IMG/VR virus record: IMGVR_UViG_3300037808_001410
Direction: 5' to 3' (one strand)
Source of the DNA: a virus
DNA: 50,228 bases
Part shown: one piece after another, positions 5,897-48,025 of the stretch
Position numbering within the stretch: the first letter of the stretch is position 1
Layout: every line of letters begins with the position of its first letter
Program-made: the position numbers and the translations under genes
Notes under the pieces: model-generated
Told to the model about the DNA's origin: nothing
Seen by the model: only the letters and a program-made list of their open reading frames with translations
The model's database searches: none

Positions 5897-5927
5897 GCCG
5901 GGGTCCAGTCGGGCCTCGGCATTTTTT
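5897..5927 (+). terminator. Rho-independent terminator of the H1-like gene
   Basis: 10-bp stem GCCGGGGTCC (5897-5906) / GGGCCTCGGC (5911-5920) with two G-U pairs and a 4-nt loop, followed by TTTTTT (5922-5927). Confidence 0.8.
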
Positions 5928-6141: not shown

Positions 6142-6171
6142 CCCGTCATAGAGAGGAAAGGCAGTAACCCC

Positions 6172-6571: not shown

Positions 6572-6654
6572 CGTTTCCTCCTGTTTCAGTATCTCGTCCT
6601 GATATGAACCCATGTCTTTCAGTTCCCTCAGGGCCTCCCGTTCCCGACGAGGCA

Positions 6655-28670: not shown

Positions 28671-29098
28671 TCCTCTGCCACCTCGTTCACATTCACCACC
28701 TGCACATTCGAAGGCAGTGAGTACATGATGTTGTTGTCAGTGTGAGATCCCCACGGACTCTGCCTCGGATGGTTTGCCACCGTCAGCATCGTAGGCTTCT
28801 CCAGGACCATGTTGAGGCGGCGAACAGCCCACCGCCTCAACTCGTCCACCTTCTCGACCTTGTTCGACATGTGGGAGCCCGTGTAGGCCTCTAGGGCATA
28901 GGCGGCACCGAAGGCCTCCGATACGCCCTGGATGACCTTATCCACGGATGCCCCGAAGGGGGTCTGGAACATCGGCCTCAACCAAGCGTCGATGTCACCA
29001 TCCCCCCTCAGGATGTGTCCAGACGCAGTGGTATCCCCCATGACCGAAGAGGTCACGAAGGGAATGAGGTCACGGAGGCCAGACACATTGCAGTACAT
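28634..29098 (-). CDS. Head-tail adaptor, DUF1320 / Mu gp36-like (154 aa)
   Basis: ORF track. It starts MYCNVSGLRDL. The position is after the capsid block. It is coupled to the upstream gene (TGATG). Confidence 0.5.
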   Translation of the reverse strand: MYCNVSGLRDLIPFVTSSVMGDTTASGHILRGDGDIDAWLRPMFQTPFGASVDKVIQGVSEAFGAAYALEAYTGSHMSNKVEKVDELRRWAVRRLNMVLEKPTMLTVANHPRQSPWGSHTDNNIMYSLPSNVQVVNVNEVAEEWRFGSRSEQSV

Positions 29099-33200: not shown

Positions 33201-33627
33201 TTGCTTTGGCACGGGCGATCTTCTCTGCGCTTCGGCCAAGGATCTTCGTTCCGTAGACTGCACCGGCAAACCACCAGAACTCGACAGGGAACGTGATTGG
33301 GGCCTTCCCGGTCATTGGGAGACCTCCGAAGTTGACAACGATCAAAGAGGTCAGAGCGACCATGGTCAGGGGTCGGTGGTTCCCCGCCAACCATGACTCG
33401 CTCTGGGCCTCTGCAACGCGAACACTATCCTGAGACCTCTGGAGATCCACTTCCTTCTGGGAAAGGATCATGACCAAGCTGTTCTCTGCCTTGTGCAGTT
33501 CCACCTTGGCCGAGGTTTTTTCGGCTGAATCAGGCAGAAGTTCTAAGGCCTTCTTGGCCCCACCGAAGACGCCACCGACCTTGTTGGCGATGGCCCCAAT
33601 CAGACTTCCTGCAAGTTCGGCCAACAT
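33178..33627 (-). CDS. Holin-like 3-TM protein (GTA_holin_3TM-like, 149 aa)
   Basis: ORF track. The segment ELLPDSAEKTSAKVELHKAE...RVAEAQSESWLAGNHRPLTMVALTSLIVVNF resembles the 'holin of 3 TMs for gene-transfer release' family as I remember it. Confidence 0.55.
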   Translation of the reverse strand: MLAELAGSLIGAIANKVGGVFGGAKKALELLPDSAEKTSAKVELHKAENSLVMILSQKEVDLQRSQDSVRVAEAQSESWLAGNHRPLTMVALTSLIVVNFGGLPMTGKAPITFPVEFWWFAGAVYGTKILGRSAEKIARAKANGGPGAY

Positions 33628-33839: not shown

Positions 33840-34067
33840 CTACTTGGCCATGAATTCACGCAAAACCACAACGATCACTGACACGCCCAGGCCCCACGCA
33901 CCGCCGAGAAACGAGGCCCTAGTCCTGGCCGAGGCCTTTATTTCGGCTATCTCGACCCGCAACGCCCCAATATCCTTACGGATCTCCTTAATGTCCTTAC
34001 CGTGGCCCTCCAGGGTGATCAAGATGTGATTTGCCCAGGCCTTAAAATCATCATGAACTTCCGGCAT
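33840..34067 (-). CDS. Small C-terminally anchored membrane protein (75 aa)
   Basis: ORF track. AGGAAGG lies upstream. An amphipathic N-terminus is followed by one C-terminal TM (FLGGAWGLGVSVIVVVL). Confidence 0.6.
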   Translation of the reverse strand: MPEVHDDFKAWANHILITLEGHGKDIKEIRKDIGALRVEIAEIKASARTRASFLGGAWGLGVSVIVVVLREFMAK

Positions 34068-34452
34068 CAGGGTAGCCTTCCTCTGCTGGGACCGTGACCG
34101 CGATAATCATGGTGTCTTCTACAGCGGTAAATGAGTGCGGTACATGCGGCCTAAGGCCACAATGATCTCCAGGGAAAAGCTCTACCTTCTCCCCACCATT
34201 GACCTCAACAATGGCATGGCCACTGACAAGTATGAGGTGTTCGGTGACGGGATGTTCATGACGGGGGTATGTATCACCCTCAGGGACAATGCCCCTAAGG
34301 ACGGCAACACGGTTTTCCTTGTAGAGCCCATAAAGAGCGGTACTGCCAACAGCGCCGAGCATCACCATAGATGGTGCGGTCGGCAGCTTGTTGGTAAGCT
34401 CTCTCAGCTTTTCGATGTTGTCTGCCACGCTGGGGGCTCCTCTGGTCCTCAT
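34051..34452 (-). CDS. Cupin-fold protein (133 aa)
   Basis: ORF track 34051..34542. ATG 34452 overlaps the portal stop (ATGA). The cupin motifs are YPRHEHPVTEHLILVSGHAIVEV...GD...PHVPHSF. Confidence 0.7.
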   Translation of the reverse strand: MRTRGAPSVADNIEKLRELTNKLPTAPSMVMLGAVGSTALYGLYKENRVAVLRGIVPEGDTYPRHEHPVTEHLILVSGHAIVEVNGGEKVELFPGDHCGLRPHVPHSFTAVEDTMIIAVTVPAEEGYPDAGSS

Positions 34453-36878
34453 CGGCCGATCCATTCTAAGACAACATCGCCCCCAAAACCCATCAGGGTT
34501 GTGGAAGCGGAATCGATAGAGGCACATGCTTCGGTCTTCCAACAGGGGTCTTTGAGGGCCACAGAGATCGACTCTCTGACAGCCTCCTCGGGTTTCCCAC
34601 TGGCCATGCCCAGCTTGCCAGCAAGAACCCCACCCTGAACCATCGCGTTCATTGTCCCGGCAAGGGCATAAGCCGCCTCATTGATGCCACCCAATTTACC
34701 ACTGAAGAGAGGTGTCAGATCTCCATAGGTCTCCACCATGGCCTCTGACAGGCCCATGGGGGGTCGTTCACCATCCGGGAGGGCATACACCTCATCCCGG
34801 TCCTTCTCGGCCCCCTGGAGGGCATGGGCGGCACCCCTGAAGACATTCTCGGCAAGAACCTCGGCCAGGGTCTCTTTGAATCGGCCAAGCTGGCGAACCC
34901 TGATCTCTTCGAACCTCTTGGGGTCGCCGGAAGCCAAGACCTCTTTCTTGTCGAGTTGTCCGAGGAATTGCTCCCTGCAAATCCTGAACTCTTCCTCAAC
35001 CAGTTCCACAACAGGCCCGGTAACGGGGTCTGGCAAGTCTGATTGCTTGGAGGTCCCGGAGCCCTGGTTGACGGGAATCCACCTGTCTGGCGGCTTGGGG
35101 CCATCCTCCTCCCCCTCGCCAATGCCCTCCTCACCACTCTTGGGTATGGAGTTCTCGACAACAGACAGCGGAACCGGGTCCATGATCTCATGCCCATGAT
35201 TCAGGTCAGGCCAGACCCGAGAGGCTACAACCTGATGGCCGTGGTCCACCGCAACAGCCTTGTCACCTATGACTGGATGGGCGTGACCATTGGAAGCGCC
35301 GGTCGCGGAGAACCCAGTCTGGAGGTCATGGGTGTGGCCATTCACGGGCATGACAACACCGTTGGCTATCTTGTGTTGGTGGAGGATCGGTAAGGCAATA
35401 CCATTGCCGAGGTCATCGAGGACGATACTGTGGGCATGGCCATGGATTACAGTAGAGACAAAGGCCTGCGTTGGCTTTGCCTGCCCATCCCCCAAGCCGC
35501 TGGACCCGCACCAGTCATCCGAATGTGTAGTGGTGGCGCGGTTATCCTTCGGCTTCGGCTCGACACCGGTCTTGTCGTCGGTGGGCTCTCGGAGCTTCTC
35601 TTCTCCGGGCACACCCAGGGCCGCGATAGGGTCGGGCTTGGGCTCCTTCTTCGGGAGGCCTGCACCCTCCGAGGGCAGGTTGAGACGCTCCCTGATGATC
35701 GGGTCTTCGGGAGAGACGATCTGGCCATCGACCAGAGCCAGGAACATGTCGGCAACAGACCGCTCATCGGCAGGCTTGTACCCCATGAACCGGAACTTCG
35801 GGTACTCCTCGACATCGGAGAAATTGACATCAATGATCCGGCGAACCAACTGCTCCCTGACCACGGTCTCAAGCTCTCTGCCGATGCCCTCAAGGACCCA
35901 GATGAAGTTGGACGCATGGACCTGACCGAGGGAGTAGGAGCCGGATCGGTCACCTTGATCCTGGATCAAGTCAGGAACAAGGATGCCCCTGGCAATCATC
36001 TTGTTGAAGTAAGACAGGGCCTTCAGGAAGGCGTCCGAGCCCCCGGTGCCGACCTCTAGGAGTTCAACCTCCCACTTCTCCGGGATGATGACCGCCGAAT
36101 TGCCCTGCATCCTTCGGAGGAAGTCCAGGACCTCTTTCTTTTCAGTCTGAGCCGACCCGGGAGGGTACTTGCCGACCGCAGTCGGGGATGCAAACTTCTC
36201 CAGGTGTGCGCCCCACCACTTCTCCAATGCCTTTTTGATGAAGTAGGGCCTGTAAACCGGCTGAAGATCTGACCGCCCATAATACCCTGTCGGCTCCTTC
36301 TGGTAGGAGTAGACGATGAACTTGTCGGTCGGGTACTTGCGCTCCTTGCCGGTCACTTTCTGGACAACGCCCCACCGGAGCATGTTGCCGAATCGGTCCA
36401 CCCGGAGTTGGATGCCATGAGGCGGCTTGGCCTTCAGGGCCTTGACCCCCAGGTATCCAGCCCATGGGCCAGATTCATAACGCCCCCAGATGATCTCCAC
36501 ACAGGCAAAGCCATAGCGCAGGGCCTCCATCAAGTCCCGAAGGAACTCATGGGTAGAGCCTTGCATGTGGTCCAGGGTGTACTTCAGGAAGTCGAGGTGT
36601 TTCTTGCCGCCCTCGGCGGCGGTGTACTCCCACCCGGTCATCAATCTGGCCATGACCTTCGTGTGGTGGCAGGCACGGACCTGGGCATCCGTGGCATACA
36701 TCTCATCGAAGACCTCAAGGCCCTGAGACTGTGAGACGGGATCGGTATATGGGGGGCCAATGGTGGCCTCAAGGGCCACGGGGGAGGTCACTGAGAGCGC
36801 GTATTCCCTCTCAGTGAGAGACTGCTCCTGGACCTCATTGCCGTAGGCGTCGAAGAGAAGCGAATTCAGTCTGCCCAT
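34449..36878 (-). CDS. Portal protein (Mu gp29 / DUF935-like) fused to a His-rich insert and a MuF-like C-terminal domain (809 aa)
   Basis: ORF track. GGAGA lies upstream. The N-terminal ~400 aa show a portal-like pattern (FDEMYATDAQVRAC...ALRYGFACVEIIW). The position is after TerL. The length is about twice that of a typical portal. Confidence 0.8.
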   Translation of the reverse strand: MGRLNSLLFDAYGNEVQEQSLTEREYALSVTSPVALEATIGPPYTDPVSQSQGLEVFDEMYATDAQVRACHHTKVMARLMTGWEYTAAEGGKKHLDFLKYTLDHMQGSTHEFLRDLMEALRYGFACVEIIWGRYESGPWAGYLGVKALKAKPPHGIQLRVDRFGNMLRWGVVQKVTGKERKYPTDKFIVYSYQKEPTGYYGRSDLQPVYRPYFIKKALEKWWGAHLEKFASPTAVGKYPPGSAQTEKKEVLDFLRRMQGNSAVIIPEKWEVELLEVGTGGSDAFLKALSYFNKMIARGILVPDLIQDQGDRSGSYSLGQVHASNFIWVLEGIGRELETVVREQLVRRIIDVNFSDVEEYPKFRFMGYKPADERSVADMFLALVDGQIVSPEDPIIRERLNLPSEGAGLPKKEPKPDPIAALGVPGEEKLREPTDDKTGVEPKPKDNRATTTHSDDWCGSSGLGDGQAKPTQAFVSTVIHGHAHSIVLDDLGNGIALPILHQHKIANGVVMPVNGHTHDLQTGFSATGASNGHAHPVIGDKAVAVDHGHQVVASRVWPDLNHGHEIMDPVPLSVVENSIPKSGEEGIGEGEEDGPKPPDRWIPVNQGSGTSKQSDLPDPVTGPVVELVEEEFRICREQFLGQLDKKEVLASGDPKRFEEIRVRQLGRFKETLAEVLAENVFRGAAHALQGAEKDRDEVYALPDGERPPMGLSEAMVETYGDLTPLFSGKLGGINEAAYALAGTMNAMVQGGVLAGKLGMASGKPEEAVRESISVALKDPCWKTEACASIDSASTTLMGFGGDVVLEWIGR

Positions 36879-36975
36879 TTCATCTCCTTGCCAATGGCAC
36901 TTTGGTCAACCCGGTGTGGAAAAGTCAAGTACGGAACCAGTCAATCGCCCTTGGAATGGCAAGTCGATAAAAGCA

Positions 36976-38259
36976 TCAAAGGTAGTGATCGAAGTCCATT
37001 CGTTCACCTGCGACCTCGGGTTCAAAGGGCTGGTAAGAGTCCCTGATGCCCATGATCAGGTACCTCATGGCATCCATGCAGTGATCCCGACGCTTCTTCG
37101 GCTTCTCCGGGATGTTGGTATCCATCGTGTCCTCGTACTTGTAGTGCGTGATCTCAAAAACGAGATCCTTCAGGCCGGGGGCAAAGGTCAACATGGACGG
37201 GTCATTCTCCATCATCGAGGCCACCGCAGCGATGCCACCCGGGATGTCACGGTTGCAGGAATTCTCATCATCGACCCGGACGCCAGCGTTGTAGGACTGC
37301 ATGACCAGATCCTTGGCGCTTTCATCGATGAAGAATTGCACTACACCGTACTTCTCCTGGACCTCCAGGAGCTTCTTGACCAGTTCTGGGGAGGTCATCC
37401 TCGGCTTCACGAACTCGTAGAAGATGTGGACCCTGAGAGGCTTCTCAGACAGGACCCCACCAAGCATGATTACCGACGGGTTGGCAACCCCCCAGTCCAC
37501 ACCGGCCAAGATGCGTGAGTACCGGGTGACGGGATAGAAGTTCATGTCGATGTGGATGGCCGGATCGAAGGGGTAGACCATGCCACCAACAGCCACGAAC
37601 TCCGCGCCATACTCCTGCCGGAACAGGAGGTCTGGGAGATCCTTCTTGGCGGCAGCGATCTCCCCTGGGTCAATCAGTGGGTTTGAGGAAGAGGGGTTCT
37701 GGAAGGACTCCCATTGATCGTCCTTGCCCTGCCCAAGAGCCCACAAGGAGTAGAAGTAGTTGAACCCCCTGGGGGTGGAGATCAACAGGGCGTCCCCACG
37801 CCGGTCAGAGAGGGTCGGCCTGATGTACTGGGTCCACACCTCTTCCTTGAGAACCGCTGCCTCATCGATGATCACAAGGTCATGGCCATCGCCCAGGATA
37901 CCCTCAGGCTTGTCGGCACTCTTCTTCACCACCCGGGCACCCCATGGCGTCCTGATCTCGTATTGGGTCACCCTGGAGGTCGGCATGGATTTCTCCTGCA
38001 CGATCCTCCGATGCACCTCGTTGAACACGATGTCCGCATGGGAGTAGGTCGGGCCGACCACAGCCACAGAGGCATTTGGCAGTCCCAGGTACGTTAGGGC
38101 TTCCTGAGAGACAGAGTAGGATTTGCCGAATCGACGACCACAGCATACTACCCTGAATCGAGCCTCTGACATGTGGATATTCCATTGCCCCTCCGAGTGT
38201 GGATTGTACCCAACAGAGGCGAACCAATCCTTCTTGTATTGGTTCGGAATTTTACCCAT
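36976..38259 (-). CDS. terL: Terminase large subunit (427 aa)
   Basis: ORF track. Walker A is CCGRRFGKS and Walker B is DLVIIDEAA. The C-terminal nuclease-like half contains IDES... and ...DHCMDAMRY. Confidence 0.92.
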   Translation of the reverse strand: MGKIPNQYKKDWFASVGYNPHSEGQWNIHMSEARFRVVCCGRRFGKSYSVSQEALTYLGLPNASVAVVGPTYSHADIVFNEVHRRIVQEKSMPTSRVTQYEIRTPWGARVVKKSADKPEGILGDGHDLVIIDEAAVLKEEVWTQYIRPTLSDRRGDALLISTPRGFNYFYSLWALGQGKDDQWESFQNPSSSNPLIDPGEIAAAKKDLPDLLFRQEYGAEFVAVGGMVYPFDPAIHIDMNFYPVTRYSRILAGVDWGVANPSVIMLGGVLSEKPLRVHIFYEFVKPRMTSPELVKKLLEVQEKYGVVQFFIDESAKDLVMQSYNAGVRVDDENSCNRDIPGGIAAVASMMENDPSMLTFAPGLKDLVFEITHYKYEDTMDTNIPEKPKKRRDHCMDAMRYLIMGIRDSYQPFEPEVAGERMDFDHYL

Positions 38260-38695
38260 CGATTACCTCGCCATCTTCAGCCCTCTGCTTGTTCATGAAG
38301 GCCTCGAAAGGACTCTTTGGCCCCTCGGCGGCATTCGGGTCGGGAGAGCCGGTGAGGATGTGCTGCAACCGGACATTCTCCTGCATGACCCTGAGGAGTT
38401 GTTCAAGGCTCTTGGCCTCAGGTTTGTCGTTCTGGAGACGCTCAAGGATCTGCCCCTCGATGATCTCGGTCAGCTTCCACCACCGCTCAAACCTCTTGGC
38501 GGTCTCATCGGCCAGGGAGACTACAAGCTGATCCCGGGCAGCGGACATCACCTCATTCCTGAAGGCGTTCTTGTCTTTCACCCGCAGCCTCTGACGGGCC
38601 ATGGGGTAGGACAGGCCCTTCTCTTCAGCGAACTCCTTCACCGAGCCGGTGTAGACATTGAACTCCATCTGGAGGGATGCCCAGTCATTCCCCAT
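38252..38695 (-). CDS. terS: Terminase small subunit (147 aa)
   Basis: ORF track. An N-terminal HTH-like segment (SVKEFAEEKGLSYPMARQRL) is present. It lies immediately upstream of terL and overlaps it by 8 nt. Confidence 0.65.
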   Translation of the reverse strand: MGNDWASLQMEFNVYTGSVKEFAEEKGLSYPMARQRLRVKDKNAFRNEVMSAARDQLVVSLADETAKRFERWWKLTEIIEGQILERLQNDKPEAKSLEQLLRVMQENVRLQHILTGSPDPNAAEGPKSPFEAFMNKQRAEDGEVIDG

Positions 38696-39371
38696 CGCTC
38701 ACCCTCGGGTCCTGCTCGGTAAGGGGTTCCTGGGAAGAATGGACAGCCATAATCTCCAGGGCCTGCCACCTGTTCCCCCTGGTGAGGCCGTAATAGGCGG
38801 CAATCCTGTCCACCTCGGCCTCGATGACAACGGCAGCATCCTTGGGGACAGCCTTCCTGCCCATCAGGGACGCGAGGGTTACCCAGTCATCCTCCTCCCC
38901 CTCACCGGGAAGGGTGATGTCGCGGTTGGCCAATTCATCGAGGTCGATGGAGGCAACGTCGATGATGTTCTCAAGCTGGTCAGCGGTGTAGGGCATGGTC
39001 GAGAGGAGATCCTCAACGTCCAACTCCTTCTTCAGGTTGGCCAGCATCTCAGAGAGGAGGATCGGGTCGGCGTCACCGCGAAGCTCATTCATGGTGATGG
39101 TGAGCCTCTTTGCCGTGGGTTCATCGACATCGATGATCACGACAGGGATCTCCTCATGGCCAAGATCCTTGCAGGCCCTCCACCGATGTTCGCCGTCGAT
39201 GATCTGGTAGGAGTCCTCGCCACCAGGGAGGGGCCTGACCAGGACAGGATCGATCATGCCGAAGCGATTGATCGATTCCTTCTCCTTCTCAAAGACCGGT
39301 GCGCTCATCCTGTTCGGATTCCAGTTGTTTGGAAATAGCCTCTCCATCGATATTGACTCGGTGCGCGGCAT
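38685..39371 (-). CDS. ParB-N-terminal-domain (ParB/Srx) protein (228 aa), possibly DpdB-like
   Basis: ORF track 38685..39542. ATG 39371 lies 6 nt after AGGAGG. The motif is GMIDPVLVRPL...YQIIDGEHRWRACKDLG. It overlaps the dpdA-like 3' end by 83 nt. Confidence 0.75.
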   Translation of the reverse strand: MPRTESISMERLFPNNWNPNRMSAPVFEKEKESINRFGMIDPVLVRPLPGGEDSYQIIDGEHRWRACKDLGHEEIPVVIIDVDEPTAKRLTITMNELRGDADPILLSEMLANLKKELDVEDLLSTMPYTADQLENIIDVASIDLDELANRDITLPGEGEEDDWVTLASLMGRKAVPKDAAVVIEAEVDRIAAYYGLTRGNRWQALEIMAVHSSQEPLTEQDPRVSDGE

Positions 39372-40302
39372 TGGCCAGCCTCCTGTTCCAGATGTTGGTA
39401 ATCTCTCTCTGCATCTCGACGAGATGGCAGATGTTCTCGACGCACAGGGCGTCCTTGTCGGCCCGTCGGCCTGTGATCTTTGCGCCGACATCGTGAGAGA
39501 TGTGGTGCCGCAATTCCCTGAGGTGTCTGGCCTTGGCGGCATCGGTGTTAGAGCCGGCTTTTTCCAGGGTCCTCTTGAGCGACCGGAGGGAATTCTTGGT
39601 GATCATGTACCCATGCCCACCTACACGCGAATCATAGAACTCGCTCTGGCCGAACTTGTCGGTGGTGGTGAAGGCGGTGGTCGAGTCGGCGGTGTCTAGG
39701 TTGGAGGCCTCCATGAGGGGTCGGCGTACCGCAGCGAATCCGTGACATCTCTTCCCGTGCGAATGGACCTGATCAACGAGCCGCCTCCAGAGAGGAGGAT
39801 CAGAGTAGGGAATGTCGCGATTGAACCCCATCCAGTGAATGTCGGGGTGGTTGAGCATGATGTCCCACCCCTTCTGTCCGAGTTCGCGGTGCCATACGAA
39901 GATGCAAGGCCTGCCGCTCTTTTGTTGGTACTGGAACATGAGGGGCCAGACATCCTCGATGATCTTCTGGTTCCCGTAGAGCTTGTAGAGATCAAGATCG
40001 ACGAATCGATCCCATAATGGAGACAGTCTATCGAGGTATCTGAAGTAGGCATCGCAGTAGTCCTCTATGGTTGCATAGGGAAGCTCCAGGCCCCCCTGCG
40101 CGTTGAGGTAGGTGAAGGCCCCGGAATCCACAATGCATTCATCGCCATTGGCCCGGAGCCATGCCCAGTATTTGATGGCCTGGGTGGACTTCCAATAGGC
40201 GAAGGACATGAGGTAGTTGACCTCACCGGGGTACCGCTTCATGACCTCACGCGCCCGACGCATGTGCCCCACCGATGCCGACGCCACGAAGAAGATTTTC
40301 AT
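39289..40302 (-). CDS. dpdA: DpdA-like DNA-guanine transglycosylase (TGT superfamily, 337 aa)
   Basis: ORF track 39289..40392. ATG 40302 overlaps the upstream stop (TGATG). It contains IVDSGAFTYL (compare the TGT motif DSGGFQ) and later LDTADSTT. It sits in an operon with folE/queD/queE/queC. Confidence 0.75.
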   Translation of the reverse strand: MKIFFVASASVGHMRRAREVMKRYPGEVNYLMSFAYWKSTQAIKYWAWLRANGDECIVDSGAFTYLNAQGGLELPYATIEDYCDAYFRYLDRLSPLWDRFVDLDLYKLYGNQKIIEDVWPLMFQYQQKSGRPCIFVWHRELGQKGWDIMLNHPDIHWMGFNRDIPYSDPPLWRRLVDQVHSHGKRCHGFAAVRRPLMEASNLDTADSTTAFTTTDKFGQSEFYDSRVGGHGYMITKNSLRSLKRTLEKAGSNTDAAKARHLRELRHHISHDVGAKITGRRADKDALCVENICHLVEMQREITNIWNRRLANAAHRVNIDGEAISKQLESEQDERTGL

Positions 40303-40865
40303 CAGATCCAATCCCTGCCGGGGGCAAGCGTCTGGGTCTCTGCCATCCATGACCCCTTGGACTCTTTGGGTGTTCTCCAGCCCTTGCCCCACACCAGTTC
40401 ACAGTATTCGACAGCAGGCCACAGCATCGGATAGGTCACACCTTTGAACAGGAACGGATGAACATCGAACAGCCTCGCTGGCAGGGTCTTCTTGCCGTGG
40501 GCATTGAGGTTGAAGATGACGCTGGGGTCGGCAGTAGGCTGGTAGGTGATGATGTCTACGAGGCATCCGTCACGGTGAAAACACTCCTGGTGGGCGCGGT
40601 AGCTACCGTCCTCGATGGTGCCCTCCTTTGGGCCGTCGAGAAACCCTTCGGCGTAAAAGTTCTGCCGTAACACCTTCTTCCATCCCGAGGTGTCACCCTC
40701 CCTTGGCAGGAGGACAGCAAAGTCCAGGTCGGTGTCGGAGGAATGGGGGGCTATCTCGTACTGCCGGTACATGGACAGCAGTTGCCCAGCATAGACAGCA
40801 TAGGGGTAAGGTTGCCTGCTGAGAATGTCATTGGCGACAGCCATGATGTCTTCAGCGTGATCCAT
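40302..40865 (-). CDS. LicD/fukutin-family-like phosphotransferase (187 aa)
   Basis: ORF track 40302..40889 (GTG). ATG 40865 follows AGAGGG. The segment YAGQLLSMYRQYEIAPHSSDTDLDFAVL parallels the LicD motif GTLLGAVR..G.IPWDDDIDV. Confidence 0.55.
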   Translation of the reverse strand: MDHAEDIMAVANDILSRQPYPYAVYAGQLLSMYRQYEIAPHSSDTDLDFAVLLPREGDTSGWKKVLRQNFYAEGFLDGPKEGTIEDGSYRAHQECFHRDGCLVDIITYQPTADPSVIFNLNAHGKKTLPARLFDVHPFLFKGVTYPMLWPAVEYCELVWGKGWRTPKESKGSWMAETQTLAPGRDWI

Positions 40866-40875
40866 GTTCAACCCT

Positions 40876-41292
40876 CTAGGATAACTCACGGAGCCCCTCC
40901 TTGATCTCAGTTGAACAGATGCCCTCGGTGTAGGGGATTGGGATTATCGCCACACCATTGCGGATGCACCACATGATGCCCTTGACTTGTTCGACACCCC
41001 ATGACCCATGGTCGGTGCCGACGAACCTGACATTGATCCCGAGGTCGGCGTAGTCGATCTCATCGAAGGCATTGTGGGTGATGACCGCCCTCACGCAATC
41101 CAGGTGGTTGATGACATCGGCCCTCACCTCGTAGGGCTGCATCGGGTCGCCCTTCTTCTCATGGTGTATCTGGTCTGAGGCTACACCCACATACAGGATG
41201 TCACACATGGAGGCTGCTCTGTGGAGGATGTTCGCGTGACCTGAATGGAAGATGTCGAACGATCCATCTATGTACCCGATTTTCCACTTCAT
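40876..41292 (-). CDS. Cytidylyltransferase-family protein, TagD-like (138 aa)
   Basis: ORF track. The motif is GYIDGSFDIFHSGHANILHRAASMCDILYVGVASD (HxGH nucleotidyltransferase motif). The size matches glycerol-3-phosphate cytidylyltransferases. Confidence 0.8.
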   Translation of the reverse strand: MKWKIGYIDGSFDIFHSGHANILHRAASMCDILYVGVASDQIHHEKKGDPMQPYEVRADVINHLDCVRAVITHNAFDEIDYADLGINVRFVGTDHGSWGVEQVKGIMWCIRNGVAIIPIPYTEGICSTEIKEGLRELS

Positions 41293-42272
41293 TCAGGCAA
41301 CACCCCTTCGATAGCCTGTGAGAATTTCTTGCCAGCTAACCGAACCACTTCAGCGCCCACAGCCACATGGCCCTGATACTCATCGGGATCGAGAGCAGCC
41401 AATAGAGACACAGAACGCGCAAGACCTCTCGCGTCGAGACTTCTGATTCTGCCGGGGTAGTCGTATCCGTAGAGTTCTGGGTAGCAGAGGTCTTCGGGGA
41501 TGGAGGGCAAGGTCCCGCAGAGAAAGGCCTCGGCGGCGACGAGCCCGAAGGTCTCCTTTCTCGATGGAACGGCTGCCACCCTCGCCCCTGCCAAGGCGGT
41601 GTAGTAGGCAGTCCTTGAAGTGAATCTGGCCATTCGGATGTGCGTGTATTTGTTGGCCTCCAGGGCAACATCGTAACCCTTGTCTGCCGACTTCCTCGAT
41701 ACGAAGATTGCGCCATCTTTTTCCTCCAGGGGAACGGGTTCGATGCCGCTGGGCTCGGCAACCGGAATCCCGACAATGGAAATCTTGTCCAGATAAGTTG
41801 CACCGTAAGCAGCATAGAGCAGGTCGCGGTGATATGCGGTGGAAACCCAGATCTCATCCAGGCAATCCAATTGCGCTATGAATGCCCTGTGGTAGCTGGC
41901 AGGGTTAGCAGAATAGGCGTCATGCTCCTCATACGGGCCACCATGGACATACCCAATGAGGCGATGGTTGCCGTTATCGAAGGCCATGATGTTCATGCTC
42001 TGAACATCGGGGAAGAAGATGGTCGCGGTCGGGTACCTCTCGGCGGCAGAGATGCCAAGGGCACAGGCTCTGGCAGCCTTCATGTCCAACTTCTCAAAGA
42101 TGGTCCGGTCCTTACTGTCCCGATCCTCGTAGGCCATGGTGAGCATCCTTGGCCCAAGAATCTCATACATGGTCTTCAGCATGTGAGAGGACCAATTCAT
42201 CGTGCTGTTGTGCTGGGAGACAGCAATAAGGTCAGGCACCTTCGACCTCCGTTCCTGGATAACCAGAGACAT
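41289..42272 (-). CDS. GT-B glycosyltransferase (327 aa)
   Basis: ORF track. The C-terminal signature is PSRKETFGLVAAEAFLCGTLPSIPED. The stop overlaps the next ATG (ATGA). Confidence 0.7.
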   Translation of the reverse strand: MSLVIQERRSKVPDLIAVSQHNSTMNWSSHMLKTMYEILGPRMLTMAYEDRDSKDRTIFEKLDMKAARACALGISAAERYPTATIFFPDVQSMNIMAFDNGNHRLIGYVHGGPYEEHDAYSANPASYHRAFIAQLDCLDEIWVSTAYHRDLLYAAYGATYLDKISIVGIPVAEPSGIEPVPLEEKDGAIFVSRKSADKGYDVALEANKYTHIRMARFTSRTAYYTALAGARVAAVPSRKETFGLVAAEAFLCGTLPSIPEDLCYPELYGYDYPGRIRSLDARGLARSVSLLAALDPDEYQGHVAVGAEVVRLAGKKFSQAIEGVLPE

Positions 42273-42795
42273 ACTCCTCGGGTGGGATGCCGTGACTGCA
42301 TAGGGCCTCGATCACATCATCCTTCGTGGTCCACAGGAGCGGGGTTGTGATCTTCAGGGGGCACAGGGCTGGGTCACGGGCGAGATTCATCGATGTCACC
42401 ATGTTGTCGGCAAAGCTCTTTGAGCAGTCTGGGAAGAGGGCCTGATCGTCCTTGTCGAACCCGACCCAGATCTCGTCGGCCTTGTAATGCTCCGACCATG
42501 AGGCAGCGATGGCCAGGAAGACAGCGTTCCTCCCTGGCACCCAGGCGTCGGACACATTCGGTGATTCGTTCCTCGGCGCATCCCCGGTGAGGGGGTTGGG
42601 TGGCAGGCGTACCTCAACGCAGTCTATGTGAAGCTGGAGCCGGTGAGCGGTCTCAAAGGCCTTCTGCCTCTCCTTCATCTTCTGGCCATAGTCAATATGC
42701 AGGAGACGGATGTCGTCCTTGTCGAAGATCTCTAGGGCTCGGTGCAGCATCAGGCGGGAATCGGCCCCGCCCGAGTACAGGATAATCTTCTTCAT
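42232..42795 (-). CDS. queC: QueC-like PP-loop ATPase (187 aa) lacking the C-terminal Cys cluster
   Basis: ORF track. Motifs are YSGGADS (PP-loop), VPGRN and FPDC. The protein ends before the position where canonical QueC carries its CxxCxxC zinc site. No C-x2-C pair is present in the translation. Confidence 0.75.
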
Positions 42796-43352
42796 TTGGC
42801 CCCCCTTACTAAAGACATAAACTCACCCCTGCCCTCACTCTCCATTAGACATCCCCTGAGAGCAGAGGTGACCATCTCGCTATTCTGTTTCTCTACCCCA
42901 CGCGCCCTCATGCACAGGTGGGAGGCCTCGATCACGACAGCAACGCCTTTCGGATGAAGGACGGTATCGACTGCATCCGCGATCTGGTCTGTGAGCCGCT
43001 CCTGGTTCTGGAGGCGTCTTGCAAATAGATCGACGGCCCGTGCCAGCTTAGAGATGCCGACGATGCGCTTGTCAGGTATGTACCCGACATGGGCCTTGCC
43101 GAAGAAAGGCAGAAGGTGATGTTCGCAGGTAGAGAAAAATTCCACGTCACGCAGGATGACAAGACCATTGTGTCCCTCCGATTCAAAGAAGGTGGAGAGG
43201 ACCTCCTCGGCGCTCTGGCTGTAACCGACGAGAAGGTCTTGCCAAGCCGAAGCAATCCGGCGAGGTGTGTCTGCAAGGCCCTCCCTTTCGGGGTCCTCTC
43301 CGACAGTGAGGCAAAGATGGTGAAACCATGAAGCGTTGAAGTCTATGTTCAT
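42792..43352 (-). CDS. folE: GTP cyclohydrolase I (186 aa)
   Basis: ORF track 42792..43442. ATG 43352 overlaps the queE stop (ATGA). Motifs are TPRRIASAW and [22 protein letters not shown]. Confidence 0.92.
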
Positions 43353-44032
43353 TTCAACCTCAAGAACTTGTGCATCTGGACAGACAGACGCCATGGTGAA
43401 TGGCTCTCCACAAATTGGACGCACCACCTGAGGTTCGGCCAATCGATAAGGTCGCAGCCCTCATCTCCGACACGGGTCCTGTTGGCCTCTGAGAACTTGT
43501 TCATCGGTTGGACAAACCAGCAGTTGCAGGTGAGGACCTCTGGGTATGAGCCCCTGAAGGGTCCGACCCATGGACGTTGCCCCTTGGCCAGGACGATCTT
43601 CACCTCGTCGGGTTTCTGGATGACAACCCTCGCCCCCTTCTTGGGGGACACGGTGACCCAATCGACAATCTTGGCATACTCATGTTCCAGCTTGATTGTG
43701 CCGTTGGTCTCGATGTGGATGTTGAACCCTTCCTTCTTCAGCCTTGCCAGGAGGGGCTTGCAATGCAGGAGGGGTTCGCCGCCGGTCAGGCACACGGTCT
43801 TCGGCCTGGACTTCATCTTCCCTGCGACCCGGAGGTAGCAATCATCGGTCACGTTCTTGATCTCATGGATGATGTCATCCTCGGTCATCATCTCGCCGTC
43901 ACGCCAATCGGTATCACAAAAGATGCAGTCGAGGTTGCACCCGGCGAACCTGACGAAGACAGTTGGGAGGCCCGTGTGCATTCCCTCGCCCTGAACGGAC
44001 AGAAAGATCTCGGTGATCTTGTACGATATCAT
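43349..44032 (-). CDS. queE: 7-carboxy-7-deazaguanine synthase, radical SAM (227 aa)
   Basis: ORF track 43349..44089. ATG 44032 overlaps the upstream stop (ATGA). Motifs are [30 protein letters not shown]. Confidence 0.9.
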
Positions 44033-44661
44033 GGTGACACTCCGTCGAATGGGATTGTGAATCTCTCGGAACCAGGGACGCCACCCCACTTCTTCATGTA
44101 GTGGTCCCTCGGGCCAACCTGCTCTCCACCGGAGGAGGCATTGCGCTTGTGGAAGGGGTCGAGAGACTTTGCATTCCCAACAACCCCCAGCTTTCCCAGC
44201 TTGGCCCTGTAGAGGAAATCCCTGTCCTCGTAATAGGCTGGGAAGAAGGCCACATCAAACTTACCAATCGATTCAAACACCCCGCACTTGAGGGCGAAGG
44301 CACACCAGTGGAAGGGGCCGATCATAAGGTCGGGCTCTCCATTACGGAGAAGCTCCCTCTTGATGTCTTCCGGGTCCTGGCCAAGAACTATGTCATCGTT
44401 CAGGTGGACAACATAGTCGGCCTTGAGGGTGTGGAAGGCGATGTCCGATGCCAGATTCCATGACCCAGCCACGCCGAGATTCCTTCCGGCCTTCACGATC
44501 AGGGTAATGGGCTTCAGGGTCTCCGGGAGGTGGAAGGTCTGCCAGCCGTTATCCACCAGGACCAGTCCAGAGAAGGCGTGGACCCTCTGGGCCAAGTCCT
44601 GAAGGCTTTCGGCCAGGAGGTCAGCACGGATGATTGTTGGGATGGCGAACACCAGCTTCAT
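44029..44661 (-). CDS. GT-A (GT2-like) glycosyltransferase (210 aa)
   Basis: ORF track 44029..44883. ATG 44661 overlaps the queD stop (ATGA). Features are MKLVFAIPTIIRADLL..., VLVDNG..., and HLNDDIVL (DxD-type). Confidence 0.7.
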   Translation of the reverse strand: MKLVFAIPTIIRADLLAESLQDLAQRVHAFSGLVLVDNGWQTFHLPETLKPITLIVKAGRNLGVAGSWNLASDIAFHTLKADYVVHLNDDIVLGQDPEDIKRELLRNGEPDLMIGPFHWCAFALKCGVFESIGKFDVAFFPAYYEDRDFLYRAKLGKLGVVGNAKSLDPFHKRNASSGGEQVGPRDHYMKKWGGVPGSERFTIPFDGVSP

Positions 44662-45140
44662 TTGACCCTCGCCACAGCCTTTGATGTCGGGGTCTCCCAG
44701 AGGGTCACGCCCCTGGGTTTCAAGGAGTGCCGCGCCCAATGGTCCAGGGCCTTCTGGAGAACGTACCGGGAGATGTTCTCGGCGGTGGGCTCCCAGGGGA
44801 CGGTGATGATGCCATAGGCCCCATCGAGGCCACGGATGGCCATAATGGGGTCTTTCTCGTTGAGCATCATCTTGTGGTCCCATGGCTCGATGATGTCCTT
44901 GAGGAAGGCCTTGATCTGGGCGTAATCCACGATCATGCCTGTGCCCTCATCCAGTGGGCCGGTGATGCCAAGCTCGATCTGGTACCGGTGGCCGTGGAGG
45001 TTGTGGCATTTGCCATCGTGATGCATGAGCCGGTGACCCATGTCCCATTCCATCGTCTTGGTGATGTAGATGTAGCCGTCTTGGACGTGCCCATCGAAGG
45101 GTGACGCGATAGTGTGGTCTTCCTTCTTGCCGTTGATCAT
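44658..45140 (-). CDS. queD: 6-carboxy-tetrahydropterin synthase (160 aa)
   Basis: ORF track. The CxxxHGH motif (KCHNLHGHRY) is present. It is coupled to the upstream gene (TGATG). Confidence 0.9.
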   Translation of the reverse strand: MINGKKEDHTIASPFDGHVQDGYIYITKTMEWDMGHRLMHHDGKCHNLHGHRYQIELGITGPLDEGTGMIVDYAQIKAFLKDIIEPWDHKMMLNEKDPIMAIRGLDGAYGIITVPWEPTAENISRYVLQKALDHWARHSLKPRGVTLWETPTSKAVARVK

Positions 45141-46261
45141 CAGAAGATCTCCTTCCAGGCTGCCCTGATCTGCTTGGTCGCGATGGCCGAAGAGTAGGTG
45201 TTTTCGATGATGTTCATATTCTCGATTCCGATCCCCTCCCAGTAGGTGCGGCCTTGATCGATTGCCGATTCGATCCTCAGGGCCAAGGCCTCTGCGCTGG
45301 GGGGATACCAGCTTGCCTTCTCCCAGACCTGCCTTATACCAGACAGCGAATCAATCGCTGGGATTTCGACAGGTTCGGTCGAGGCTGCGAACACCTGTGA
45401 TGCGCTTTGCAGGTTGGCGACGAGCAGTTCCGCGATGCCCGAAGAGTCTGACCCGATAGAGGGTGTGCCCAAGGCCCCGGGCTCAAGAATCGCCTTCGGG
45501 ATGGTGTCGCCATAGGAGGGGTAGAGGTTAACATCGATGGACGCGTAGAACTCCCGAATGCCACCCCTCTCCTTGGTGTTATCCACCGCCGCGAACTCCA
45601 CATTGTCTAGGCCTTCGAACAGCTTCACGGCGTCCTTGAGGCTCTGGGTGGGGGCGTCCGAGAAGGTAGGCCTGAGGCGCAGAACAGCATCACCTGTGTC
45701 GGCCTTACCCCAGGCCTCGGCAAGGACCTTCCAGCCCTTCCGTTCGATCCAGGCACCGGTCATCCCAAAGGTGAAATGCTCGCTTCGACCCTCGTCTACA
45801 CAGCCGAACTTGAAGAACTCGGTGTCCACATGGTTCGGCACCACGAAGATCGGCGCATCCATGACCGGTCGGGCTTGGTTGGCACAATACTCGCTGGTGG
45901 TTATCAGGGCCTTCCACTGGATGTCCTTGAAGAAGGCCTTGAGCATGTCGGCATTGAGAAGCACCTCCCACATCGTCAGCCAGATGGTGGCATGGATGCT
46001 CGCCCCGGCGCTCCAATTGTCCCCGCCAATAAGGACCTGGGCTGGCGAGGCGCACAGCAAGTGCGGGTAGGTGATTTCCTGTGGGCAGGTCATCTTCGCG
46101 TAGGAGAGGTATTGCCGTTCCACCTCCGCATTGTCGCCAGCATTCAACGACTGTGCAGTGACACGGTAGGAGGTCAGATGGTCGAGCAGTTCTCGCCAGT
46201 AGTTGTCGTACCCAGTAGTGCCAAACATGGGTCCGATCAGGTTCGCTTCGAAGGATCGCAT
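45140..46261 (-). CDS. GT-B (group 1) glycosyltransferase (373 aa)
   Basis: ORF track. The signature is YPSYGDTIPKAILEPGALGTPSIGSDSSGIAELLV. It is coupled to the upstream gene (TGATG). Confidence 0.7.
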   Translation of the reverse strand: MRSFEANLIGPMFGTTGYDNYWRELLDHLTSYRVTAQSLNAGDNAEVERQYLSYAKMTCPQEITYPHLLCASPAQVLIGGDNWSAGASIHATIWLTMWEVLLNADMLKAFFKDIQWKALITTSEYCANQARPVMDAPIFVVPNHVDTEFFKFGCVDEGRSEHFTFGMTGAWIERKGWKVLAEAWGKADTGDAVLRLRPTFSDAPTQSLKDAVKLFEGLDNVEFAAVDNTKERGGIREFYASIDVNLYPSYGDTIPKAILEPGALGTPSIGSDSSGIAELLVANLQSASQVFAASTEPVEIPAIDSLSGIRQVWEKASWYPPSAEALALRIESAIDQGRTYWEGIGIENMNIIENTYSSAIATKQIRAAWKEIF

Positions 46262-47160
46262 CAGATCGTCCCCCAGGTATTAGGGTCTGAGAATTCATGC
46301 GGGGCACATTTGGACCAGAAGCCTGCATTGACGTTCTTCTCGGCATAGGCGAGGGCGATCCTCAGGTCCTTCTTGTCGGCAACCATGAGGCAGTCATGGA
46401 AGACATTCTTGAAAGAGGTCCCGATGGGCCAGCCGGTGCCGTCCCTGGTGACCTTGGCCCAGGAGCATCCGTCGGAGGCAATGCCGTAGACCAGGAGGGC
46501 ATCCCCGGCCTTGGCCGACTCGACGTCCTCCCTGGACTTCCATTTGCCGACACTCTCCCAGAGGCGGTAGCCCTTGTCGATGGCAGAGCCGTTGAAGAGG
46601 ATGCCTTCAGCGCCTTTGCCTCGGAGGCCAGCGAGGGCTCTCAGCCATGCATCCATGACGAGCATCTCTTCGGGTCGGTTTGAGCCGAAGGGCCAGACGA
46701 TGGCCTGTTCGTCGGGGTCCAGGCCCCACCACCGGACGTTGGGATCGAAGTCATCGATGAAGAGGCCTCGGCATCCGGCCCAGACCTTTGAATTGAGGAC
46801 GGCGAAGCACATCTCGGCAAACCGTTGGTCGTGGAATTGGTCCATCCGGTACGGGAACTGTCCCTTGTCGGCCCGGACATAGGGGAGGGTCGCGTAGATG
46901 TCGGCGGGGCCAAGCTGCCAGGATGGGTGGTTGTTCTCGGCCACGGTCCTGTAGGAGCAGCCCCAGTAGTCGAGGTAGAGGTAGGTCTTGGCCAGGGTTC
47001 GGGTGAAGGCCTCCGGGCCGTAGGTTCGAAGGAGGTCCATCGAGGATGATCCGGTGACGATCTGCTCGACATTCATCATGCCTTCGAACTGGTCCTGGGT
47101 GATGAGGTTGGGGTCGTAGGAGTTGCCGTAGTAGAAGCCTATGGGTCGGTACATGTTCAT
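46261..47160 (-). CDS. Hypothetical protein, tentatively TIM-barrel glycoside-hydrolase-like (about 299 aa; start at 47160 or 47154)
   Basis: ORF track 46261..47259 (TTG). ATGs at 47160 and 47154 follow GAAGGG. The segment ...GCRGLFIDDFD... is reminiscent of GH114 / GHL-type barrels. This call is weak. Confidence 0.4.
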   Translation of the reverse strand: MNMYRPIGFYYGNSYDPNLITQDQFEGMMNVEQIVTGSSSMDLLRTYGPEAFTRTLAKTYLYLDYWGCSYRTVAENNHPSWQLGPADIYATLPYVRADKGQFPYRMDQFHDQRFAEMCFAVLNSKVWAGCRGLFIDDFDPNVRWWGLDPDEQAIVWPFGSNRPEEMLVMDAWLRALAGLRGKGAEGILFNGSAIDKGYRLWESVGKWKSREDVESAKAGDALLVYGIASDGCSWAKVTRDGTGWPIGTSFKNVFHDCLMVADKKDLRIALAYAEKNVNAGFWSKCAPHEFSDPNTWGTI

Positions 47161-47221
47161 CCCTTCAGGCTGGGGTTCCCCCACACTGTCTTCCTCTCTG
47201 GCACCCATGTCAAACAATTTG

Positions 47222-47251
47222 TTGACAATATTGCCACCTTTTGTGTAACCT
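47222..47251 (+). promoter_or_regulatory. Candidate promoter of the rightward 47274-49607 operon
   Basis: -35 TTGACA (47222-47227), 18-nt spacer, weak -10 TAACCT (47246-47251). It is followed by AAGGAGG and ATG 47274. Confidence 0.35.
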
Positions 47252-47273
47252 CCTGCCAATCAAGGAGGTTAGG

Positions 47274-47537
47274 ATGGCGACGAGCAAGGTTGGTGGTGGT
47301 CCTCAGGGGGACGGGCATTTTCTATCGAGGGGTGAATGCACGGTAGCGATCCGGCAGGTTCTGATCGGGATGCAGGTCACGGGGGTCTCTCCCTATCATC
47401 TTGACGGCGTAGACATGGTTCGGGTTCATTTGACGAGGGAGACCCTGGATCATGAGAAGGCTCCCTTGGGTCCTGGGGCGGCCTACCTGGACTTTGACGC
47501 ACACGGGCTGATGGACCATTTGGAGGGTATGAGATGA
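47274..47537 (+). CDS. Hypothetical protein (87 aa)
   Basis: ORF track 47241..47537. ATG 47274 lies 5 nt after AAGGAGG. Confidence 0.6.
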   Translation: MATSKVGGGPQGDGHFLSRGECTVAIRQVLIGMQVTGVSPYHLDGVDMVRVHLTRETLDHEKAPLGPGAAYLDFDAHGLMDHLEGMR

Positions 47538-48025
47538 GAAATCCGAATCCGTTCTTCGTCTGCCTGATCGGCATCGTGGTGATATTCGCACTGATGCTCA
47601 TAGGCATCGATTGCACACCTGTCCAGCAGGGTGGGTCCTTGCCGGGGATGCCGAAGGAGGTTGTAGACCAGTTGGAGCCTGGGACGATCATCGGCGGGAT
47701 CAGTATGACCGATGAGGAGGCCTGGATCATGGCCTACAACAATGGCTGGGAGGGGTGGCTTCCCGCGAACCCGGACACGAGCTGGTACGAGTGGATGGAC
47801 TATCTTCCCGCGAAGCATGACAGCACCAGCGGCGGGGGCATGTGGATGTGCGAGGAGCGGTCGAGGGGTGCGTGGCCTACGCCTTCCGGCTGTGCGAACT
47901 TCTACATCCTCTGGTCGGTGGAGGGCGCAGACACGACGGGCCATCTCTTGATGATCCGACTCCAGGACAACAAGGCGGTCCCCATCTGGATGCCTCACAT
48001 TGCCCGGGCTTACGGGGGTCCCTGA
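47534..48025 (+). CDS. N-terminally anchored membrane or exported protein (163 aa)
   Basis: ORF track. ATGA coupling. The N-terminal hydrophobic helix is FFVCLIGIVVIFALMLIGI. The ectodomain is Trp-rich. Confidence 0.65.
   Translation: MRNPNPFFVCLIGIVVIFALMLIGIDCTPVQQGGSLPGMPKEVVDQLEPGTIIGGISMTDEEAWIMAYNNGWEGWLPANPDTSWYEWMDYLPAKHDSTSGGGMWMCEERSRGAWPTPSGCANFYILWSVEGADTTGHLLMIRLQDNKAVPIWMPHIARAYGGP

Follow-up and report, generated by a model that had tools for sequence, protein, structure and literature searches.

A TagD-type cytidylyltransferase and a compact LicD-like protein encoded beside a deazaguanine gene cluster in an uncultured siphovirus-like phage: a possible cassette for tailoring virion glycans

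Introduction

The glycerol-3-phosphate cytidylyltransferases TagD and TarD (PDB 1coz, 2b7l), and ECT and CCT of the same family, are cytidylyltransferases (CTs) that consist of a single HxGH Rossmann-like domain of ~130 aa. LicD, fukutin (FKTN) and FKRP (Pfam PF04991; FKRP PDB 6kaj-6kan) have a nucleotidyltransferase fold and are paired with a CDP-alcohol synthase, which is LicC for LicD and ISPD for FKTN and FKRP. A pair of this kind is described here from a phage. It was found in IMG/VR virus record IMGVR_UViG_3300037808_001410, of which a stretch of 50,228 nucleotides (the window) was analyzed. The two genes, at 40302-41292 on the minus strand, encode a TagD-like cytidylyltransferase named CT138 and a LicD-like protein, and they lie directly upstream of a gene for a divergent DpdA-like protein. 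Comparison with related phages favors a virion glycan as the target of the pair over the 7-deazaguanine whose genes are adjacent.

CT138 has the single-domain build of TagD, TarD, ECT and CCT, and shares with TagD-type enzymes the HSGH motif and, in part, a C-terminal (R)TEGISTT-like motif. It differs from TagD and TarD in being only distantly identical to them, in the sequence PYTEGICST with Tyr for Arg, and in GTDHGSW instead of GDDW. Unlike TagD it is phage-encoded and is paired with a LicD-like protein rather than with a TagF-type polymerase. TarI, which a preliminary description of this DNA had grouped with TagD, has an IspD-like fold, unlike TagD.

The LicD-like protein shares with LicD, fukutin and FKRP the predicted nucleotidyltransferase fold, the segment G..LLG..R...IP.D.D.D, a second Asp and the pairing with a (here putative) CDP-alcohol synthase. 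Unlike FKRP and LicD it is only 187-195 aa long, has no stem or zinc-finger domain and on its own scores below the Pfam threshold.

A phage-encoded licD and ispD pair was noted earlier in the Flandersviridae and is unstudied (Benler et al. 2021, PMC8008677). As here, LicD is encoded beside a cytidylyltransferase and the pair occurs in only some members. The Flandersviridae pair differs in having a partner of the IspD/TarI fold, in lying in a replication module and in belonging to phages of another host group; the partner in the window is of the TagD fold and the genes lie in a late region with packaging and head genes.

Work by Freeman et al. from 2023 is said to deal with Che8-type glycosyltransferases (GTs) of mycobacteriophages and with virion glycosylation. 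Glycosyltransferases of mycobacteriophages have been read as signs of capsid glycosylation (PMC11256854). The Che8-type cassettes and the GT-GT2-methyltransferase cassettes of phages phiPsal1 and S-CBS4, whose role in virion glycosylation is putative, are like the window in that siphoviruses encode soluble GT-B and GT-A enzymes. Unlike the window, these cassettes are without CT or LicD. Clusters for DNA glycosylation, acting on 5-hydroxymethylcytosine (5hmC; 10.1101/2023.12.21.572611) or forming arabinosyl-5-hydroxycytosine (arabinosyl-5hoC; PMC13326640), are like the window in having variable sets of GTs and sugar-activating enzymes near ParB-like and terminase genes. Both kinds of cluster require a pyrimidine-hydroxylating enzyme (5mYOX or a ThyA homolog), none of which was found among the window ORFs scanned, and unlike the window none of them includes LicD.

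The enzyme families are already known, as is the logic of a CDP-alcohol used by a LicD-type enzyme (LicC with LicD; ISPD with FKTN or FKRP), and the window enzymes are divergent members of these families. A recurrent cassette of a TagD-type CT and a compact LicD in the late, head or packaging regions of phages appears to be new. The CT/LicD fusion variants and the placement of the cassette in a variable slot of a cluster of Que, DpdA and GT genes also appear to be new.

Results and Discussion

Cytidylyltransferase CT138

CT138 is encoded at 40876-41292 (-) and is 138 aa long, with the N-terminal sequence MKWKIGYIDGSFDIFHSGHANIL. Its ATG overlaps the stop codon of the upstream glycosyltransferase gene GT4b (ATGA). 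The protein matched Pfam PF01467 (CTP_transf_like) with an E value of 6.8e-15. FHSGH is located at residues 15-19, and H16, G18 and H19 are invariant among the five LicD-linked CTs that were aligned. The 138-aa HxGH nucleotidyltransferase of the preliminary description was thereby confirmed.

As a single sequence CT138 matched ECT (6e-11), the Fom1 cytidylyltransferase (6e-11), TagD (8e-10) and CCT (up to 1e-8) in the PDB, with PPAT reaching only ~6e-3. A profile was built from the five CTs adjoining LicD genes and searched against the PDB. The best matches were TagD over its full length (4e-36), ECT (2e-33), TarD (1e-32) and the Fom1 cytidylyltransferase domain (2e-29), followed by CCT (~1e-19), the RfaE-like 3glv (1.6e-18) and PPAT (2.6e-5 or weaker). 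By these sequence profiles CT138 is placed in the TagD/ECT/CCT cytidylyltransferase family and not in the FAD, NAD or PPAT adenylyltransferase branches. An FAD/NAD-type adenylyltransferase, raised as an objection in the preliminary description, was ruled against because the profile favors TagD over PPAT. In PHROG and NCBIfam the top matches of the single sequence were RfaE domain II-like (phrog_7878, 1.7e-16; TIGR02199, 5.5e-17). Its NCBIfam equivalog scores of 47-62 bits are far under the cut-offs of 165-181 bits. The C-terminal RTEGISTT signature of the family reads PYTEGICST in CT138 and PYTQGISST and PRTLGISTT in the CTs of two other loci, L011 and L015, respectively. Tyr replaces Arg in CT138 and L011, while TEGIS-T is retained.

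LicD-like protein

The gene for the LicD-like protein occupies 40302-40889 (-). The open reading frame (ORF) encodes 187 aa from ATG 40865, leaving a gap of 10 nt after the CT138 stop codon, or 195 aa from GTG 40889, which was the start picked by the gene callers. Both starts are plausible because each has a Shine-Dalgarno-like sequence upstream (AAGGAGG 6 nt before the GTG, GAGG 7 nt before the ATG). At its other end the TGA overlaps the ATG of the DpdA-like gene by one base (TGATG). The 187-aa ORF, its motif segment and the overlap with the DpdA-like gene agree with what had been described before.

The segment G.LL..R...P...D.D.D fits the invariant family columns G27, L30, R34, P40, H41, D44, D46 and D48, and it did not arise by chance. 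Alone, the window protein had no match in Pfam (E<=0.01), NCBIfam, PHROG or PDB sequences, and only four close homologs were found among 5.8 billion clusters. A four-sequence profile of the protein and three close homologs retrieved 201 remote relatives. Seventy-two sequences, made up of the window protein, its close homologs and the top remote matches, were scanned against Pfam and 66 matched LicD. G27, D44, D46, D48, D104 and W163 are invariant in all 72. The extended LicD profile matched human FKRP at 4e-15, aligning the G..LLG..R..IP.D.D.D block and the second Asp, so that D44, D46, D48 and D104 align with DYDVD and HVDLW of FKRP. Compared directly by hhalign, the four-sequence profile and the FKRP fragment gave a weak match (E 0.0035 across 48 columns), and the family assignment therefore rests on the intermediate sequences and on the second of two AlphaFold2 (AF2) models. 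The first model, made from four sequences, had a pLDDT of 57 and was set aside. The second had a pLDDT of 95.2 and a pTM of 0.91, from an input alignment consisting mostly of LicD relatives, and the fold match is to be read with that in mind. In Foldseek it matched viral LicD proteins (1.9e-9, TM 0.74) and FKRP (4.5e-7, TM 0.61), with the small-molecule nucleotidyltransferases LnuA (1e-5) and ANT(2'') at lower ranks. From profiles and model together, the 187/195-aa protein is predicted to be a compact transferase with the LicD/FKRP fold and an acidic metal motif, and it is proposed to transfer a phospho-alcohol. The LicD/fukutin fold, whose absence the preliminary description had named as a test of its idea, is thus found in the model as well as in the profile match to FKRP.

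Pairing of CT and LicD in other loci

Ten independent loci encoding this LicD subfamily were retrieved, including the window. A TagD-type CT adjoins LicD in seven of them (the window, L011, L012, L013, L014, L015 and L048/L049), and the adjacency persists down to 24-30% identity. L011 is the closest, its LicD and CT being 54% and 53% identical to the window proteins. Two of the remaining three loci are contigs of less than 2 kb and the third is L001. When the LicD alignments were searched against viral contigs no related loci were returned, and a metagenome scan with the same alignments gave two distant loci only.

Among the remote homologs the two domains are also fused, as CT+LicD in P0047 and as LicD+CT in P0026. 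GT-B domains are joined to LicD in P0017 and a 566-aa protein of L012, and methyltransferases are joined to it in P0085, P0110 and P0111. P0007 adjoins a GT2 gene. In L012 portal and scaffold genes precede an SU10-type capsid gene (7e-82), which is followed by a 120-aa gene, CT and the 566-aa LicD::GT-B fusion (3650-7373 from capsid to fusion). L015 (1752-5575) is an AT-rich contig of an unrelated phage, with the order radical SAM (rSAM)/SPASM, LicD, methyltransferase, CT, a 131-aa gene and GT2, directly before TerL. In L013 the LicD-CT pair lies within a large polysaccharide-type cluster. No Que or DpdA genes were in view around the CT and LicD genes in the stretches seen of L012, L015 and L048.

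From these comparisons it is very likely that CT138 makes the donor and the LicD-like protein is the matching transferase, the two acting as a pair in glycan tailoring. The preliminary description had proposed that a CDP-activated phospho-alcohol is produced and then transferred; given the adjacency in seven loci and the fusions in both orders, that proposal is soundly reasoned.

A further observation concerns L048 (683-2113) and L049 (1723-4934), which belong to another uncultured element. There CT, LicD and a methyltransferase are encoded beside phage-like GroES/GroEL and a CAP-domain protein.

The deazaguanine cluster and its variable slot

Genes for preQ0 synthesis and for a DpdA-like transglycosylase are all present in the window, the DpdA assignment being the weaker one. 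QueD (PTPS family, Pfam PTPS 1e-30) is encoded at 44658-45140, a QueE-like radical SAM enzyme at 43349-44032 (Pfam Radical_SAM 3.1e-10; assigned also by its position between QueD and FolE), FolE, a GTP cyclohydrolase I, at 42792-43352 (Pfam 3.2e-68) and QueC at 42232-42795 (Pfam QueC 1.3e-30), all on the minus strand. QueC is short. The match covers profile positions 2-188 of 210, and the C-terminal part, which in QueC holds the Zn-binding Cys cluster, is missing here and in the QueC proteins of two related contigs, L017 (8393-8959, 188 aa) and L018 (4603-5163, 186 aa). The product of the short QueC could be other than preQ0. The DpdA-like, TGT-like protein at 39289-40302 (-) matched phrog_887 (queuine tRNA-ribosyltransferase, 2.9e-18) and, weakly, the TGT of Fusobacterium phage phiFN37 (tblastn, 2e-6). 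It had no Pfam TGT match and no PDB sequence match, and may represent a new DpdA subfamily.

L017 and L018 are the two closest relatives of the window phage. L017, an IMG/VR contig, is 64% identical in DpdA, 63% in TerL and 70% in the capsid protein; the DpdA of L018 is 78% identical. Both retain the Que genes, GT4b, DpdA, ParB and terminase. The order in L017 is methylase, QueD, GT2, GT2, two unknown genes, QueE, FolE, QueC, GT4b and DpdA, and in L018 a 322-aa gene, GT4, QueD, QueE, FolE, QueC, GT4b, rSAM/SPASM, GT2 and DpdA. CT and LicD are absent between GT4b and DpdA in both. The window has CT and LicD at this place (40302-41292), L017 is empty (9803-10001) and L018 holds rSAM/SPASM and GT2 (6087-7840), and for this reason the position was regarded as a variable slot. 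The rSAM in the slot of L018 is homologous to that of L015 (27% identity, E 1e-28).

In L017 a DNA methyltransferase, judged by eye from an SPPY motif, is encoded just upstream of QueD (1986-2732), so the region collects DNA-modification genes. The proteins L001_241, L017_247 and L017_277 gave no family or PDB match.

Glycosyltransferases and head modules

Four GTs were identified in the window. GT4b (41289-42272, -), a GT-B enzyme of GT4-like type, matched Pfam Glycos_transf_1 (1.2e-6) and GT4-conflict (2.8e-5) and is conserved in L017 and L018. GT4_373 (45140-46261, -) is a GT-B enzyme (Pfam Glyco_trans_1_4, 1.1e-8) with a 40% identical homolog in L018. Homolog searches with these two returned members of the same phage clade only. 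GT2_210, of GT-A type (44029-44661, -; phrog_29879, 3.4e-13), is encoded between QueD and QueE. GT_435, a GT-B enzyme (29098-30405, -; Pfam Glyco_trans_1_4, 2.2e-7), lies directly after the major capsid gene, and its 55% identical homolog in L017 likewise follows the capsid gene.

GT2_210 homologs were found in the head modules of Pontimonas phage phiPsal1 (2e-13) and Synechococcus phage S-CBS4 (4e-9). In phiPsal1 the order is major capsid protein, GT (GT_435 homolog), SAM-dependent methyltransferase, GT2 (GT2_210 homolog) and neck. In S-CBS4 a trio of GT_435-like, GT2_210-like and methyltransferase genes lies between portal and protease, in the order portal, one other gene, GT, GT2 and methyltransferase. 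These cassettes are located at 6979-9351 in L042 and 6049-8415 in L045. In Tetrasphaera phage TJE1 a GT_435 homolog occurs together with genes for a nucleotidyltransferase, an epimerase and a methyltransferase, upstream of TerS. The 31 kb of phiPsal1 are annotated with no Que, DpdA, ThyA-like or TET-like gene, and its one annotated type of base-modification gene is an N6 methylase. GT_435 is a likely partner of GT2_210. The cassette of GT, GT2 and methyltransferase in phiPsal1 and S-CBS4 looks like an unstudied virion-glycosylation module. Since GT2_210 has its conserved partner behind the capsid gene, and since the two are inherited together where deazaguanine genes are absent, the interleaving of GT and Que genes cannot be read as a shared pathway.

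The late transcription unit

All the genes of interest are on the minus strand. From high to low coordinates they encode a 315-aa protein, GT4_373, QueD, GT2_210, QueE, FolE, QueC, GT4b, CT138, the LicD-like protein and the DpdA-like protein. Downstream of the last are ParB-like, TerS, TerL, portal, protease, capsid and GT_435 genes, and then neck and tail genes. The genes from QueC through GT4b, CT, LicD and DpdA to ParB overlap one after another. No sigma-70-like promoters were found in the 11.5 kb at 36500-48000, where 4.4 were expected, and terminator-like sites were rarer there than in shuffled sequence. The accessory, packaging and head genes appear to share a single long late transcript, in which many stop codons overlap the next start. 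The cassette thus occupies a variable slot of a late unit that also holds the preQ0/DpdA system, so it would be co-expressed with that system and not part of it. Its adjacency to dpdA and the overlap of stop and start codons indicate co-expression, not a shared pathway.

Proposed function and alternatives

The reading we favor, with a probability of roughly 0.45, is that CT138 and the LicD-like protein are a mobile, optional cassette that adds a phospho-alcohol to a glycan built by the phage, probably on virion proteins. CT138 would join CTP and a phospho-alcohol into a CDP-alcohol. By structure the nearest fit for the substrate is glycerol-3-phosphate; the phosphates of ethanolamine and choline, or a phosphonate, are also candidates. 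Through its DxDxD...D metal site the LicD/FKRP-fold enzyme would then move the phospho-alcohol from the CDP donor to a hydroxyl of the glycan, with release of CMP. The glycan would be assembled by the soluble GTs of the phage (GT_435, GT2_210, GT4_373 and GT4b) and carried most likely by virion proteins of the head and not by a 7-deazaguanine base. The major capsid protein (Phage_cap_E by Pfam; 30486-31481, -), with a 70% identical homolog in L017, is a candidate acceptor. The virion is suggested by the place of CT and LicD::GT-B behind the capsid gene in L012, by that of GT_435 behind the capsid gene in the window and L017, and by the head-module cassettes of phiPsal1 and S-CBS4. The alcohol, the phosphotransfer chemistry and the acceptor are what we infer; the families, fold, pairing, fusions and pattern of presence and absence are what was found. 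In the loci compared, the cassette is interchangeable with rSAM, GT2 and methyltransferase tailoring enzymes, as a surface structure under diversifying selection would be expected to show.

Several points weigh against this reading or limit it. The phage is uncultured, and to our knowledge no virion glycan with a phosphodiester-linked alcohol is known for any phage. The gene directly upstream of LicD in L001 is not a CT. The Tyr that takes the place of the family Arg in CT138 may mean that its substrate or activity differs. The isoelectric points, 4.8-5.8 for the acidic GTs, CT and LicD against 8.6-9.2 for the basic DpdA-like proteins, fit an acceptor other than DNA but are weak evidence. GT genes are interleaved with Que genes in the window, L017 and L018, and in the same three lineages GT4b overlaps the 3' end of the short QueC gene and is translationally coupled to it, at 31-43% GT identity, all of which would fit a DNA-linked function. 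Genes for phage DNA glycosyltransferases have also been reported beside ParB-like and terminase genes (10.1101/2023.12.21.572611).

The last of these points bear on a DNA target instead, for which the chance seems small. On that explanation the GTs would put sugars on a 7-deazaguanine derivative, before or after its insertion by DpdA, and CT138 and the LicD-like protein would add the phospho-alcohol, giving a glycosylated and phosphodiester-decorated deazapurine in virion DNA; in a variant of it, the elaborate base would be built free and then inserted by the divergent DpdA. Such a route, which we consider improbable, gains from the overlapping chain from QueC to ParB, the 11.5 kb free of promoter-like sites and poor in terminator-like ones, the interleaving of GT and Que genes with GT4b always overlapping the short QueC, and the high divergence of the DpdA-like protein. 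The variation of the slot also resembles that of DNA-modification clusters that diversify glycans, genes for DNA glycosyltransferases often lie close to ParB-like and terminase genes, and one phage cluster (contig 53) puts heptose on 5hmC by means of a 'CTP transf.' enzyme (10.1101/2023.12.21.572611). The preliminary description had likewise let the two enzymes act within the pathway that installs the modified base. That part of it is not supported, and by comparison of loci the pair probably stands outside the deazaguanine pathway: Que and DpdA genes are retained in L017 and L018 with neither CT nor LicD, and the cassette occurs after a capsid gene (L012) or before a terminase gene (L015) with no Que or DpdA gene in the stretch seen. 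Homologs of two neighboring GTs, GT2_210 and GT_435, make up a head-module cassette in the two cultured phages phiPsal1 and S-CBS4, the first of them lacking annotated deazaguanine genes. Moreover, preQ0 and 7-amido-7-deazaguanine (ADG) present no hydroxyl handle. Pfam scans of 40 window ORFs, which took in some of the small ones, turned up no base-hydroxylating enzyme, whether ThyA-like or TET-like (5mYOX), and no QueF. Glycosylated deazaguanine was not reported in the literature searched, and the GTs and LicD are acidic. A more specific form, in which an N-linkage might attach the sugars to the carboxamide group of ADG, itself possibly made by the short QueC, and the glycosylated 7-deazaguanine would be capped by CT138 and LicD with a phosphodiester-linked alcohol such as glycerol phosphate, is more doubtful still. 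A link to hydroxylated pyrimidines was dropped, as no ThyA-like or TET-like gene was found among the ORFs scanned.

Remodeling of the host envelope is another unlikely explanation. In bacteria, LicD and TagD canonically serve to modify the envelope. Here the GTs, CT138 and LicD would work from the cytoplasmic side on the lipid-linked precursors of host teichoic acid, lipopolysaccharide or capsule, for example adding glycerol phosphate or phosphocholine to block superinfection or change receptors. An envelope role has been suggested for the licD and ispD pair of the Flandersviridae gut phages (PMC8008677), the pair of L013 lies inside a polysaccharide-type cluster, and peripheral GT4 and LicD enzymes require no transmembrane segment. 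Yet no initiating phosphoglycosyl transferase, flippase, polymerase or membrane protein was found in the window cluster, the genes are in a late unit with packaging and head genes and not in a lysogenic-conversion position, homologous cassettes occur inside head modules, and four or five GTs are many for receptor masking. Very improbable, finally, is that the two proteins do not work as a pair, CT138 making an NDP-sugar (ADP- or CDP-heptose) for the GT-B enzymes and the LicD-fold protein being an unrelated nucleotidyltransferase that may adenylylate a small molecule as LnuA or ANT(2'') do. The RfaE domain II-like top matches of CT138 in PHROG and NCBIfam, the contig 53 precedent of the New England Biolabs (NEB) preprint (10.1101/2023.12.21.572611) and the return of LnuA (1e-5) and ANT(2'') by Foldseek would fit this. 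They are outweighed by the adjacency in seven loci and the fusions in both orders, by a CT profile that matches TagD, ECT, TarD and Fom1 at 1e-29 to 1e-36 versus 1.6e-18 for the RfaE-like 3glv, by NCBIfam scores that all fall far under the family cut-offs, and by FKRP and viral LicD proteins leading both the fold and the sequence matches.

A phosphonate pathway had been considered from the similarity of the CT to the Fom1 cytidylyltransferase and from the rSAM and methyltransferase genes of sister cassettes. It was dropped as a lead, as no phosphoenolpyruvate (PEP) mutase was seen.

Implications

If a virion glycan is the target, some phages would use a portable CT-LicD cassette to attach phospho-alcohols resembling those of teichoic acid, or phosphocholine, to glycans of their own. 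This would be a new chemical layer on the glycosylation of virions, for which a link to immune recognition has been drawn in mycobacteriophages, and would define a compact LicD subfamily that Pfam misses. The locus is also a warning that genes cannot be assigned to a DNA-modification pathway from tight linkage to dpdA in an operon, nor even from their interleaving with Que genes. Were DNA the target, a deazapurine carrying sugars or a phosphodiester would be found in DNA for the first time, with a bearing on restriction evasion and on the sequencing of modified DNA. The capped 7-deazaguanine in particular would be without precedent in any DNA as a purine analogue bearing a sugar or a phosphodiester, and the GT4b-dpdA slot would diversify the adduct between phage lineages.

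General features of the phage genome

The phage genome is ~50 kb with 57% G+C and is siphovirus-like. At least five metagenomes yielded this contig on assembly. Megablast of the cluster against 50,697 phage records gave no match. In tblastn against the same records LicD, GT4b and protein P0006 had no match, and P0010 had marginal matches only. No prophage relatives were found in the representative genomes scanned with DpdA and TerL. In TerL relatives at ~30% identity the whole cluster is absent, and they offer no natural experiment. The proteins of the cluster are all soluble, without hydrophobic segments.

The remaining window genes encode Rad52, replication protein O, a single-stranded DNA-binding protein (SSB) and a helix-turn-helix (HTH) regulator; a DNA polymerase was not found in the window. 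The 315-aa protein (46261-47208, -) is encoded by the first gene of the unit and had no match in Pfam, PHROG or the PDB. The 322-aa gene of L018 takes the same position, with no detectable similarity between the two. Between the portal and protease genes Pfam identified a Cupin_2 protein (34051-34452, -) and a GTA_holin_3TM protein (33178-33627, -).

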